Positions 6,311 to 63,429 are shown, counted from the first letter of the stretch. The stretch: 64,000 nucleotides of DNA from an uncultured Chlamydiae bacterium (GCA_963754655.1 CAVWGN010000001.1:768001-832000); one strand, 5' to 3'. The notes: generated by a model not told the origin, from the letters alone. Numbers and translations: made by a program.

Positions 6311-7353
6311 GTACTCGTTTACATTAGTTTTTGCCTATTGGATTGCTTCATAGGCCCCGGGTTGGGATGAGATGATTCTCTTGTAGTCCTTCAGACTACA
6401 TGAAGAGGGCTAATCTAACCCAGGGCGATGCCCTGGGCTATTTTTATTTGGAGCCTTTCAGGCTCTGAACATTGGACATTTTTGGAAGACCTCCTTCTAT
6501 AACAATTGTAGGGCTATGCCTATTAAATGGTGCATACTCCACAATCATTTTAGAGACGGTTAAAAAAAAGATGTCCAATGTTTAGAGCCTGAAAGGCTTC
6601 AAATAGCCCCAGGGTTAGGGTGTTCATTTTGTGCAAAAAATGAACTTTATTTTTCACAATAATTGGCATAGTTGAATTGAAAGTCAGATGTTTATGCCGT
6701 CCTTTCAGGACTCGATGTCTTTTTGATAGAACCCAGGCCTCCGCTTCGCTGCGACCTGGGCTGTAACATGACGGCCCTTCAGGCCTTAACAAAAAGATGA
6801 TTTAGGGACTATAGAAGATGATTTAGGGACTATAGAAGAGGGACTTAAACCTCTCTTCTTAAGGCCTGAAGGGCCGTCATGTTACAGCCCAGGTCGCAGC
6901 GAAGCGGAGGCCTGGGTTCTATCAAAAAGACATCGAGTCCTGAAAGGACGGCATAAACATCTGACTTTCAATTCAACTATGCCAATTATTGTGAAAAATA
7001 AAGCTCATTTTTTGCACAAAATGAACACCCTAGCCCCGGGTGGCTGCCTAGGCTATTTTATTTGGAGCCTTTCAGGCTCTAAACATTGGACATTTTTGGA
7101 AGACATCCTTCTATAACAATTGTAGGGCCATGCCTATTAAATGGTGCATACTCTACAATCATTTTAGAGACAGTTAACAAAAAGATGTCCAATGTTTAGA
7201 GCCTGAAAGGCTTCAAATAAAATAGCCCAGGGAATCGCCCTGGGTTAGATTAGCTCTCGTTATGTAGTCTGAAGGACTACAAGAGAATTATCTCATCCCA
7301 GCCGCGGGGCTTTCAAGCAATCCCAATAGGCAAAAACTAATGTGGTTGAGTAC
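6311..7353. mobile_element. Nested palindromic MITE-like element (shell A > B/C > shell D > core E/F), ~1.04 kb
   Basis: Ends GTACTC..ATTAGTTTTTGCCTATTGG / CCAATAGGCAAAAACTAAT..GAGTAC; inner inverted arms ~6618-6789 and ~6859-7030. Confidence 0.85.
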
Positions 7354-7418
7354 TTAGCTTAACGCATGGGCTCGGTCACAGTGGGTCCACAACCCTCACA
7401 TAAGGATTGCGCATTTCC

Positions 7419-8366
7419 ATGTTTTTATCTCCTCATTATTCTGTTTTATTGACAGAAGTTGTGCAAGCTTTTGAAACTTTGTCCCTTGAAGTCGTTGTCG
7501 ATGGAACTTTAGGAGCAGGAGGCCATGCCCTAGCTTTGCTTGAACACCACCCAGAGATTCGGCATTATATTGGAATCGATCAAGATCCTCATGCACTTGG
7601 TTTAGCGTCTGAGCGTTTAAAACCTTGGGCTTCAAAGTTGATTCTTAAACATGGAAATTTTGCCCAGTTTGACGAATTCTTAAACGAGTTGTCCTTATCT
7701 TCTGTACAAGCTATTTTGGTTGATTTAGGTGTCTCTTCCATGCAATTGGATCAACCTATGCGCGGCTTTAGTTTCATGCAAGACGGTCCGCTTGATATGC
7801 GTATGAATCCTCTCGTGGGTATGACAGCGGCTGATGTGGTGAATCAGTGGTCAGAGCAAGAATTAGGGCGCATTTTTCGCGAGTATGGAGAAGAAAAGCA
7901 ATGGCGAGCAGCAGCTCGTGTCATTGTGCAGGCGAGACGTTCTCATCCTTTTGTCACAACAGGGGATCTTAAAGCTGTTTTAACACCTGTTTTGGCTCGC
8001 TTTTCCAAAAAGGGAATTCATCCCTTGACACTTGTTTTTCAAGCTTTGCGTATTTGCGTCAATCGTGAATTAGAAGTATTGGATGCTTTTATGCCTAAAG
8101 CCATTGATCGATTAGCTCCAGGAGGACGCTTGGCCGTTATGAGTTTTCATAGTTTAGAAGATCGTATCGTGAAAACGCATATGCGTTTGGCAGCGAGTGA
8201 TAAATGGGACACCAGCGGCCTCAGCGGTCTTTTCCAAGATAAAGAACCGACTGTCAAATTGATCACAAAAAAACCCATTGAATCCAGTGAGAAAGAAATT
8301 CAACAGAATCCTCGCAGCCGCAGCGCAAAATTACGTATTGTAGAAAAATTAGCAGTCTTAAGTTAG
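7419..8366 (+). CDS. rsmH: 16S rRNA m4C1402 methyltransferase RsmH (MraW)
   Basis: Motifs DGTLGAGGH, DLGVSSMQLD, GPLDMRM, FHSLEDRIVK, NPRSRSAKLR. Confidence 0.97.
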   Translation: MFLSPHYSVLLTEVVQAFETLSLEVVVDGTLGAGGHALALLEHHPEIRHYIGIDQDPHALGLASERLKPWASKLILKHGNFAQFDEFLNELSLSSVQAILVDLGVSSMQLDQPMRGFSFMQDGPLDMRMNPLVGMTAADVVNQWSEQELGRIFREYGEEKQWRAAARVIVQARRSHPFVTTGDLKAVLTPVLARFSKKGIHPLTLVFQALRICVNRELEVLDAFMPKAIDRLAPGGRLAVMSFHSLEDRIVKTHMRLAASDKWDTSGLSGLFQDKEPTVKLITKKPIESSEKEIQQNPRSRSAKLRIVEKLAVLS

Positions 8367-8390
8367 GAACTGTTCCTAAGTAGGATATAA

Positions 8391-8702
8391 ATGGGATTAC
8401 TCATACGCTTATTGATTTGTATTTCTTTTGTCGGCTTAGTGCTTTATAAGTATATTGATAAATTGAATGAATTGACTGAGTTAAGATTATCAATTCCTAT
8501 CTTGGCACGCGAAGTCAAAGAAATTCATGAACACAATCTTGAACTTCAGTATGCAATTGATTGTTTTGAGAGTCCTTTGCACTTGATGGAGTTAGCGCGC
8601 AAACCTGAATTTGGACATTTAAAATATCCATTTATTAATGAAATTGTCCTTTTGCCTGAAACTTCTGTTTCATGTTCAGAGGATACTTCTAGTGATAATT
8701 AA
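8391..8702 (+). CDS. ftsL: FtsL-like cell division protein
   Basis: N-terminal TM plus coiled coil; lies between rsmH and ftsI. Confidence 0.7.
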   Translation: MGLLIRLLICISFVGLVLYKYIDKLNELTELRLSIPILAREVKEIHEHNLELQYAIDCFESPLHLMELARKPEFGHLKYPFINEIVLLPETSVSCSEDTSSDN

Positions 8703-8704
8703 CT

Positions 8705-61265: not shown

Positions 61266-62324
61266 TTAAAATATCCAAAACTTGCCAAAAGACAAAGTCA
61301 GGACCCAGCTCATTAGCAAAAAGATTTTGATCCATTTAAGAATGCTTGATTCTCTTTGATTAGACAATAAAATAAGGGCTTGCAAGCGTTTAACGGCATG
61401 ATGTGAAGTTGCAAAGGATCGGGCGAAAGTGGGAAGGGAAGCCGTATGTAGCCAGTCAGCTGCTTTGTAAAGTGCTTCGGCCAAATGCAAGTGATTGAGA
61501 GAGGTACCAGGCAGTCGATCGCATGCATATTCCTGAGCAAACTCTAATCGGGTCTTAAAATAGCGGGTTGGAATCCACCAAAAAAGATGACAAATCCCAA
61601 ATAAAACTGCATTGACTATAAGGTCTCCATGCATCAAATGAGCGAGTTCATGTGCAATGATAGCCTCAAATTCTTGTGGGATGAGTTTGTCAAATAGAGC
61701 GCGAGAAATGAAAATGGCTGGACGGCGCTGTCCGATGATGAAAGGGGAGTGAGGTATGGGGGTCAAATAGATGGCTACTTTTTTGTGTTGAATTCTCGAT
61801 TGCAAAAGGGAATCTTGTAGCGGATAAGAGTAGGGGGTAGAAATGGAGCACAGTTTGTTGAGCCATTGAGAAGATAAGCGATATTGCCAAATTGCCTGTC
61901 CTAAAAACCAAAGTGTTCCGGCAATCAAACCTAAAGCGCAAATTAAGGTCCACTGGCAGCCTATTTTGAGGCAAAGAAGATCCGCAAGAGTAAAGGTTTG
62001 TCCGTGAGAAAGATGAAGATCGATCGAAGAGAGAGGATACTGGAAGGGAAACAACCAGAAGTTCAGACTCAACATGCGCGTCCCCTCAGGACTGGTCAGA
62101 GGATTGAGCTGTTGAGCAAGAGCCCAATTGGAAAATTCATAGGAGCCCAAGTCGGTGATCAACTTCATAAATGGAATTAATAAGCAGAGCGCCTGAAGAC
62201 GGCCATTTTGGATGCGTAAAAGCTTCAAAGCAAAGTAAGTCAAAAAGCTTAAAGTGAAAAACGAGAGTAGGCTATTGACTCCTACATTGACAATGAAAAT
62301 CGGCCATAATGAAAATTCCATCAT
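61266..62324 (-). CDS. M56 family (BlaR1/MecR1 N-terminal-type) metallopeptidase, no PBP sensor domain
   Basis: TMs; IIAHELAHL..GD, W..P, EYACD. Confidence 0.88.
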   Translation of the reverse strand: MMEFSLWPIFIVNVGVNSLLSFFTLSFLTYFALKLLRIQNGRLQALCLLIPFMKLITDLGSYEFSNWALAQQLNPLTSPEGTRMLSLNFWLFPFQYPLSSIDLHLSHGQTFTLADLLCLKIGCQWTLICALGLIAGTLWFLGQAIWQYRLSSQWLNKLCSISTPYSYPLQDSLLQSRIQHKKVAIYLTPIPHSPFIIGQRRPAIFISRALFDKLIPQEFEAIIAHELAHLMHGDLIVNAVLFGICHLFWWIPTRYFKTRLEFAQEYACDRLPGTSLNHLHLAEALYKAADWLHTASLPTFARSFATSHHAVKRLQALILLSNQRESSILKWIKIFLLMSWVLTLSFGKFWIF

Positions 62325-62701
62325 TTCATCTCGTTCTTAGCTTTTTGAAGAATGTTTTTCATCTCTTCTAAATCTTGCATTGTTAAATCCTTGCTTGAAT
62401 CGATCAAATAGCGAATCATGGCAATAGAGCGTCCCCCAAAGAGGCGTTGCTTAAGTCGCTCAACAAGTCCAAGCGCAGAAGTTTTTGATGTTTGGGGAAG
62501 TTGATAAAGATAGTGACGTCCTTCCCGCCGGCGCTCTAAATCTCCTTTTTCAAACAGCCGTGTCATTACAGTCATGACCGTCGTATAAACAACAGTTTGA
62601 TTCAAAGCTTGATAAATTTCTTTGACTGAGACCTCTTCTTTTTCCTTGATCAGCTGGAGAATAATCCACTCCAATTCGCCAAATAATCGTTTCTTTGACA
62701 C
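62321..62701 (-). CDS. BlaI/MecI/CopY family repressor
   Basis: Motifs GELEWIIL, YTTVMTVMTRLFEKG.L.R...GR.YLY. Confidence 0.92.
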   Translation of the reverse strand: MSKKRLFGELEWIILQLIKEKEEVSVKEIYQALNQTVVYTTVMTVMTRLFEKGDLERRREGRHYLYQLPQTSKTSALGLVERLKQRLFGGRSIAMIRYLIDSSKDLTMQDLEEMKNILQKAKNEMK

Positions 62702-62726
62702 TGCATAACTCCCTTTCTTTTTTTTA

Positions 62727-62742
62727 TACTACAGTCGTAGTA
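62727..62742. promoter_or_regulatory. BlaI-type operator upstream of the repressor
   Basis: TACTACAGTCGTAGTA; same outer arms as the 61227 site. Confidence 0.65.
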
Positions 62743-62796
62743 TCTAGTCAAGCTTGAACCGTCCTAATATAAAGAACTAGTGTAATGGAGTTACCA

Positions 62797-63429
62797 GTAC
62801 TCCATTACACTAGTTTTTGCCTATTGGGAGCGCTTGAAAAGCTCCCGCGGTTGAATTGGGATGAGATGATTCTCTTGTAGTCCTTCAGACTACATGACGA
62901 GGGCTAATCTAACCCAGGGCCAGGTGTTCATTTTGTGCAAAAATGAGCTTTATTTTTCACAATAATTGGCATAGTTGAATTGAAGGTCGCATGTTTATGC
63001 CGTCTTTTCAGGACTCGATGTCTTTTTGATAGAACCCAGGCCTCCGCTTCGCTTCGACCTGGGCTGTAACATGACGGCCCTTCAGGCCTTAACAAGAGAT
63101 GTTTAAGCCCCTCTTCTATAGTCTCTAAATAGTTTTTTGTTAAGGCCTGAAGGGCCGGCCCTTCAGGCCTTAACAAGAGATGTTTAAGTCCCTCTTCTAT
63201 AGTCCCTAAATCATCTTTTTGTTAGGCCTGAAGGGCCGTCATGTTACAGCCCAGGTCGCAGCGAAGCGGAGGCCTGGGTTCTATCAAAAAGACATCGAGT
63301 CCTGAAAGGACGGCATAAACATGCGACCTTCAATTCAACTATGCCAATTGCTCATTTTTGCACAAAATGAACACCCTAGCCCGGGCTTTGAAGCACTCCC
63401 AATAGGCTAAAATTAATGTAATGAATTAC
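62797..63429. mobile_element. Nested palindromic element (A-B partial-D-E-F-F-E'-D' partial-A'), partly degenerate
   Basis: Same modules as the other copies, with loop F duplicated; a residual A' end at ~62771-62793. Confidence 0.8.

Follow-up and report, generated by a model that had tools for sequence, protein, structure and literature searches.

Nested palindromes in a Parachlamydiaceae genome: a probable mosaic of REPIN-like doublets and MITE-like shells

A 64,000-bp stretch of DNA from an uncultured Chlamydiae bacterium (GCA_963754655.1, CAVWGN010000001.1:768001-832000; referred to below as the window) contains a family of modular palindromes in which one inverted repeat encloses another. 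With a probability of roughly two in three, we read these elements as a deep mosaic of doublets resembling REPINs (hairpin-forming doublets of repetitive extragenic palindromic, or REP, sequences) set inside shells akin to MITEs (miniature transposable elements with inverted repeats), a mosaic shaped by copying between arms and by recombination and not by insertion aimed at centres of symmetry. The nested palindromes themselves are real, lie between genes and can form hairpins of up to ~1 kb. The motif at the ends of the outer shell (module A) has seven matches in the window and the hairpin motif of the core arms (module E) has 11, compared with 0.00 for either motif in 100 dinucleotide shuffles. 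As had been claimed in a preliminary description of this DNA, the elements fold into hairpins, with 81-94% of their bases paired. Every element is intergenic, with the sole exception that the stop codon of cmk lies inside an A end. The window has a GC content of 38.9% and its genes are chlamydial housekeeping genes. Its Cmk protein shares 77% identity with the Cmk of Ca. Protochlamydia phocaeensis and 73-76% with proteins of Parachlamydiaceae metagenome-assembled genomes, and we regard the host as a relative of Protochlamydia within the Parachlamydiaceae.

The preliminary description distinguished an outer shell A, arms B with loop C, a shell D, core arms E with loop F, and a hairpin G, combined in six main loci and three remnants. 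All nine were found at the positions it gave or a few bases off. The six loci comprise 4,101 bp or 6.4% of the window, in line with its figure of ~4 kb, and none of the modules encodes a transposase, as it had said. It described each layer as an inverted repeat; in locus 1 the two copies of C lie in direct, not inverted, orientation, so this locus is more than a simple nest of palindromes. E, treated there as a single core arm, divides into a three-hairpin arm and an outer shell of 12-bp terminal inverted repeats (TIRs), here called E1. Internal duplications of F in loci 4 and 6 had been overlooked, as had a seventh large palindrome (50175-50495, element I) and hairpin H (29171-29221), both detected by a scan for long inverted repeats, and an IS5-family element (42972-43815).

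Three-hairpin arms and a candidate transposase

Arms E and B are laid out alike: a short CCYTTCAG hairpin is followed by a middle CCCAGG...CCTGGG hairpin and by a second CCYTTCAG hairpin. Hairpins 2 and 3 of E resemble Acido-Lenti-1 (RF01687; Weinberg et al. 2010, PMC2864571), matching its two-hairpin structure over positions 1-46 of the 46-position covariance model in every E arm. All 11 E arms score 36.4 bits, 0.6 bit under the gathering cut-off of 37 bits; those of locus 1 lie at 6732-6786 (+) and 6862-6916 (-). E differs from the published motif in having an extra upstream hairpin and in forming inverted doublets within mobile shells, and we read it as DNA and not as a small RNA (sRNA). 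The B arms of locus 1 score 19.1-20.1 bits, below the cut-off. Among relatives in other genomes, two chlamydial loci pass it (L096, 41.1 bits; L124, 39.6 bits) and L071 reaches 37.0 bits. Matches to Rfam miRNA families were rejected as generic hairpins far under their cut-offs.

A scan of GTDB representative genomes with the middle hairpin of E alone returned at least 122 loci, 80 with 3-kb flanks and 42 with ~300 bp. The matches listed include Acidobacteria, Planctomycetes, Verrucomicrobia, Lentisphaerae, Bacteroidetes and Deltaproteobacteria, together with five chlamydial loci from four genomes, and in many phyla E-type arms are found unaccompanied by A, B or D. The same listed matches comprise 140 distinct middle hairpins, for which 130 upstream and 133 downstream windows are complete. 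A flanking stem of at least 5 bp is present in 87/130 upstream and 106/133 downstream windows; 50 mononucleotide shuffles gave on average 10.9 and 6.5 such windows, and never more than 17 and 14. Because these stems are far above the shuffles, the three-hairpin layout is a conserved unit. A BLAST search of plasmids with the E arm gave one 29-bp match only (E=0.9).

Both E-F-E' and B-C-B' are extragenic and consist of two inverted hairpin repeats that form one hairpin, as REPINs do; the inverted doublets of E round loop F and of B round loop C would thus be REPIN-like elements. Matching doublets exist in three further Chlamydiae assemblies (L074, L077, L124). The arms point inwards in the window, L074 and L077 and outwards around tnpA (see below), and both orientations are on record for REPINs (PMC3337134). 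The 5' GT[AG]G foot and Y--NP enzyme of canonical class 2 REP-associated tyrosine transposases were not found: E has no GTAG foot, and the first hairpin of B begins with GTAG and ends with CTAC, inside the stem.

Which enzyme could serve such units? A REP-associated tyrosine transposase was suggested in the preliminary description as something to look for. The window has no cognate Y1 transposase gene; in other genomes such a gene stands beside related repeats at L024, L071, L115 and L126. In three of the 122 loci listed (L024, L071, L115) a Y1 transposase gene, tnpA, lies 52-70 bp from the motif, and a profile search of the 397 kb of listed motif loci found no other; about 0.03 such neighbours would be expected, assuming ~1.7 genes per genome (PMC6006769, Table 1) and a genome size of 5 Mb. 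A three-hairpin unit stands on each side of tnpA at L024, and such units also lie on both sides of the gene for a close TnpA homologue at the plasmid locus L126. TnpA_Y1 subclass 1.2 is characterised by DH[IV]H, WQ and Y---Q--HH motifs and a length of ~148 aa (PMC6006769, Table 1). All three motifs are present in the proteins of L024 (152 aa), L071 (150 aa) and L126 (150 aa), which we place in subclass 1.2 by motif alone and not by the hidden Markov models (HMMs) or tree of that study; the L115 TnpA is truncated. The signature DH[IV]H, WQ and Y---Q--HH holds for 119/120 of the homologues listed, and against NF047646 the tnpA-adjacent enzymes score at most 20 (cut-off 80). On the reading favoured here, arms E and B are REP-like three-hairpin units of Acido-Lenti-1 type, and the enzyme that serves them is likely to be a tyrosine transposase of the HUH kind, from TnpA_Y1 subclass 1.2.

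Some results weigh against this link. tnpA is absent from 119/122 motif loci listed, 42 of which have only ~300-bp flanks; in the reverse test, a thin one, one of two plasmid tnpA loci had three-hairpin flanks; and no TnpA_Y1 gene or remnant lies within the 64-kb window. The other plasmid tnpA, L127, at one place on its plasmid, is accompanied by unrelated hairpins. It represents a second subclass-1.2-like clade with different upstream hairpin repeats (L127:1290-1450), which suggests clade-specific repeats. Loops C and F were considered as tnpA remnants and gave no tblastn or HMM signal. A relaxed plasmid search for TnpA added four distant records of IS200 type, TnpA had no match in phages, and no chlamydial name appears among the best 120 of 3,888 homologues of the L024 TnpA, an uninformative result. 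Subclass 1.2 is listed without a REP by Quentin et al. (PMC6006769), and our literature search, which did not extend to most subscription journals or to the motif supplement of Weinberg et al., found nothing linking Acido-Lenti-1 to TnpA. The best lead is that Acido-Lenti-1 is a REP-like DNA element of TnpA subclass 1.2.

Terminal-repeat shells and composite loci

Shells A (n=7), D (n=4) and E1 (n=5) share the features of MITEs, being short, non-coding, multi-copy and bounded by TIRs; element I has the same build and is single in the window. The flanking repeats of locus 2 and element I, and the TA dinucleotides at A ends, are the reason for regarding them as TIR shells of DDE-type MITEs, which A, D and E1 look like. 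Locus 2 (13143..13450) is E1-E-F-E'-E1' alone, with a 12-bp TIR (11/12 match) and asymmetric subterminal ends. An exact 8-bp direct repeat abuts either end, for which the chance probability is ~2e-5, or 2e-4 allowing nine offsets. Element I (50175..50495) is a 321-bp palindrome with 119-bp perfect arms and GGGTGT ends like those of D. It has an exact 9-bp direct repeat on either side (6e-6 by chance), and its GC-rich inner hairpins are unrelated to E or B. Of the seven A elements, four have TA at both ends and the others at one, and in each of two pairs of elements a TA is held in common. Duplication of TA is typical of IS630 and of some IS5 elements.

The same 12-bp shell surrounds an E doublet in an independent Chlamydiae assembly (L077), where a paralogue junction is without the element, in an alignment that is not a clean empty site. 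Together with the 8-bp repeat of locus 2, this supports the idea that the composite E1-E-F-E'-E1' behaves as a unit. The proposal of several non-autonomous MITE- or REP-like units is supported, and the companion proposal that composites may move as units is supported for this composite. Elsewhere on the L077 contig, a further inverted repeat (4428-4573) is made of 9-bp tandem units.

What speaks against the MITE interpretation? D has no direct repeat like that of element I, and the L077 shell is without a flanking direct repeat. The A-end motif has no match in GTDB representatives, and A+G, D and element I gave only noise (E>=2) or nothing against plasmids, so that the shells are without a known autonomous partner. 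The nested copies of E1 and D show no target duplication. An insertion sequence (IS) with matching ends, recommended as a search target in the preliminary description, appeared neither in the GTDB scan for the A-end motif nor among the plasmid and phage matches. BLAST of locus 1 gave no match in plasmids and three of 23-25 bp in phages, confined to the middle hairpin of B. The Protochlamydia plasmid pPNK (145 kb) contains none of A, D, E1, G, outer B, C, F or H (best E 0.63). Its IS1 and IS256 were rejected as parents of E1, since their ends do not match the shell, as was the IS5 element beside locus 5 as a parent of A or D, its ends differing beyond GGG.

The loci combine these modules in different ways. 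Locus 1 (6311..7353), upstream of mraW/rsmH, reads A-B-C-b'-D-E1-E-F-E'-E1'-D'-b-C-B'-A' and has a 21-bp tandem duplication in F. Its D...D' block (6618..7030) is joined to B at TA sites, and a half arm of hairpin H (7355..7367) adjoins its A' end. Locus 3a (16091..16250) is A-G-A' with TA on both sides and A arms homogenised to two differences; one TA is common to it and locus 3b (16253..16682), A-B-C-B'-A', after which gnd starts 32 bp on. Locus 4 (23178..24008), A-b-D-E1-E-F-E'-E1'-[F-E'-E1']-D'-b'-A', contains a 180-bp tandem duplication and has one TA in common with the 'empty' A-A' of locus 4b (24009..24101). In chlamydiae, cmk and plsC normally adjoin; here they are 936 bp apart, and loci 4 and 4b occupy all but 20 bp of the gap. 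cmk takes its final codons and its stop (24094-24104) from the A terminal repeat of locus 4b; Cmk homologues have similar lengths and variable tails. Locus 5 (42401..42969) is A-D-E1-E-F-E'-E1'-D'-G-A', its off-centre D block flanked by two copies of the 8-mer CCCCGGGG. The IS5-family element (42972..43815, minus strand; NF033580) has inserted into locus 5 at its terminal TA and is itself bordered by TA at either end; its transposase lies in three open reading frame (ORF) pieces, all matching, and its ends match no module's ends. Locus 6 (62797..63429), A-g(9 nt)-b-D-E1-E-F-e'e-F-E'-E1'-D'(deleted)-A', is a mosaic fused at short microhomologies, head-to-head with an A-end remnant (62771..62791, minus strand). 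A second A-end remnant (22012..22034, minus strand) is a weak match (E=1.2), and at 29127..29221 (plus strand) a decayed A left arm is followed by hairpin H (29171-29221).

Arm homogenisation and the origin of nesting

Inner arms are homogenised within each locus. For D, E1 and E together, two arms of a locus differ at a mean of 1.0 positions, versus 4.5 between loci, and for E alone the values are 0.4 and 2.6. The effect is weaker in outer arms (B, 3.0 within versus 4.2 between; A, 6.9 versus 9.6), and locus-specific variants are mirrored in both arms. Template switching has been reported to homogenise the arms of inverted repeats (PMC8604942).

How did the layers come to be nested? The preliminary description proposed that the units repeatedly target each other's symmetry centres, and this is not supported by the placement of D. 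The D block is off-centre in two of four loci, lying 54 and 121 bp from the ends of locus 5 and 126 and 53 bp from those of locus 6. It is 131 and 130 bp from the ends in locus 4 and 307 and 324 bp in locus 1; in these two loci D joins natural TA sites at both feet of the middle hairpin of B, within the arms. Models of insertion into an arm, assembled from loci 3a, 3b and 5, match more alignment columns than models of insertion at the centre: 87.1% versus 71.5% for locus 1, 94.3% versus 75.1% for locus 4 (180-bp duplication left out) and 96.8% versus 86.0% for locus 5. The models were made after the loci had been inspected, so the better fit does not amount to an independent test. For the 'empty' A-A' junction, deletion from A-G-A' (24/26 columns, one gap) fits slightly better than a clean shell (24/28, three gaps), and A-A' is therefore not shown to be an ancestral state.

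We propose that an element would enter the arm of another at TA or at a short CCCNGGG, where the junctions are seen. Through template switching or conversion, one arm of the hairpin would then be copied onto its partner, with the homogenisation described above as the outcome. Because the insert is itself palindromic, its copies in the two arms are direct repeats of each other; recombination between them could delete or duplicate the middle, leaving the insert centred and its flanks inverted, not direct. Such a series rebuilds loci 1, 4 and 5: in locus 4 recombination would have removed the middle, and in locus 1 re-entry or unequal exchange would have duplicated it, giving two direct copies of C. 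The scheme leads to inverted flanks at nested D and E1 junctions, as seen. The outermost intact shell may carry the whole stack, as the 8-bp repeat documents for the E1 shell only.

Could each module's transposase instead pick out the centre of symmetry of a palindrome already in place, such as the tip of an extruded cruciform? The central D of locus 4 and the almost central D of locus 1 would fit, as would an 8-mer similar to CCCCGGGG that lies at A's inner end, next to G, B and D, and the 8-mer on both sides of D in locus 5, which resembles a target duplication. We nevertheless consider this improbable, since besides the off-centre D of loci 5 and 6 it cannot account for C being present twice in direct orientation in locus 1 or being lost from locus 4 (gap runs of 83-106 nt), and the flanks at the D-E1 junction are inverted, not direct. 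Somewhat less probable still is a history with little transposition of inner modules, in which a single ancestral composite, or perhaps two, spread and then diversified only by microhomology deletion, template switching and recombination among copies. This overlaps the second and third steps of the scheme proposed above and differs only on independent mobility. It accommodates the fusion of locus 6 at TTGG and GGGC microhomologies, the presence of tandem duplications at three loci (1, 4 and 6) and the 'empty' shell that fits a deletion. Independent mobility is favoured by locus 2, a solitary copy between exact 8-bp repeats, by element I with its own 9-bp repeat, and by E-type arms lacking A, B and D in many phyla.

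Structured RNAs or regulatory hairpins maintained by the host (true non-coding RNA, terminators or mRNA stabilisers) are a considerably fainter prospect. RF01687 is listed in Rfam as an sRNA, Table 1 of Weinberg et al. (PMC2864571) rates Acido-Lenti-1 as 'probably' RNA, the middle hairpin of B is terminator-like on both strands, and most elements lie between co-oriented genes. However, the arms are near-identical, multi-copy and in both orientations, direct repeats flank elements, the cmk-plsC junction is occupied, and tnpA adjoins the motif in relatives; nor are terminator-like sites clearly above expectation (7 in the 4 kb scanned versus 3.7 +/- 2.2 in shuffles). Host function is unnecessary to explain the elements, which may still have secondary effects on transcripts. 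Least credible of all is an assembly or fold-back artefact: the perfect inner arms invite it, and base-calling or polishing could have produced the unusual duplications of loci 1, 4 and 6, yet the elements are placed only between genes, their non-palindromic loops are conserved, locus-specific variants and exact flanking repeats occur, the host contig spans 3.12 Mb, and the same doublets are present in other Chlamydiae assemblies (L074, L077, L124).

Neighbouring features, known systems and meaning

Several further features of the window were recorded. Locus 2 lies 27 bp upstream of tRNA-Arg(CCT), at the expected -35 region (13117-13142), where no sigma-70-like site was called. A BlaI/MecI-type repressor and an M56 peptidase (61266-62701) adjoin locus 6. 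The 3' end of tRNA-Leu(CAA) and ~30 bp downstream of it are repeated at 39894-39934 (39586-39934), like the attL/attR of a decayed integrated element. An 821-aa protein (19457-21922) has about seven 51-aa beta-propeller-like repeats and four 85-aa IPT/TIG repeats; a 770-aa protein (56697-59009) has a weak eukaryote-like WH2 motif (E 6e-5), and a 165-aa ORF (63447-63944) a weak eukaryote-like mitochondrial-carrier repeat (E 1e-8). Isolated perfect hairpins of 33-40 bp at 50909-50941 and 60717-60756 are unrelated to the modules.

Among described systems, REPINs and REPtrons (Bertels & Rainey, PMC3337134; Quentin et al., PMC6006769) are likewise extragenic, inverted doublets of hairpin repeats that form one long hairpin, occur in both orientations, build higher-order arrays and have related units on either side of a single Y1 HUH transposase gene. 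Here, in contrast, the unit is a three-hairpin arm of 90-110 bp where a REP has 20-40 bp, the associated enzyme is class 1 (Y---Q--HH, subclass 1.2) and not class 2 (Y--NP), and as many as three TIR shells enclose the doublets. Bacterial MITEs (PMC3184786), among them the R0/R2 repeats of P. fluorescens (PMC2718517), also have TIRs, no ORF, a hairpin fold, multiple intergenic copies and TA or 8-9 bp direct repeats. The elements in the window differ in that unrelated shells are stacked up to four deep, arms are homogenised and a parent IS was not found. TIRtrons and compound TIRs (Di Nocera et al., PMC3733652) resemble them in being long inverted repeats formed where REP units are joined to unrelated stem-loops, in occurring as dispersed dimers and in having tyrosine transposase genes flanked by long TIRs. 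Unlike those, the present arms lack, by eye, the GGGGWSAS motif, are nested more deeply and are associated with another TnpA subclass, TIRYTs being mostly 2.1 (PMC6006769). Bacterial (BIME) and neisserial (NIME) mosaic elements (PMC3184786) are comparable intergenic mosaics of recurring modules that attract insertions. These, and the enterobacterial ERIC repeats, are mainly tandem arrays or single insertions, whereas the present elements are concentric palindromes of kilobase size. Internal insertions do occur in ERIC elements. A literature search outside most subscription journals found nothing on such elements in chlamydiae or on nested bacterial MITEs.

As a kind, the elements fall within REPIN and MITE mosaics, and what is new is the unusual depth of stacking. 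A more far-reaching reading, which we put forward tentatively and at clearly less than even odds, is that Acido-Lenti-1 forms the core of a REP-like DNA element with three hairpins whose enzyme is TnpA_Y1 subclass 1.2, and that in Parachlamydiaceae its doublets have been captured by DDE-type MITE shells, with layers re-centred through arm copying and recombination into self-organising multi-layer composites that would be mobile by either chemistry. If so, an abundant Rfam 'RNA of unknown function' would be a DNA element belonging to a clade described without REPs, and this link between Acido-Lenti-1 and TnpA subclass 1.2 is testable. The loci also illustrate how palindromes of kilobase size can be built and re-centred with no centre-seeking enzyme. 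Because they take up ~6-7% of the window, including the cmk-plsC junction and a site upstream of a tRNA gene, such elements may influence transcription, the stability of the genome and its assembly.

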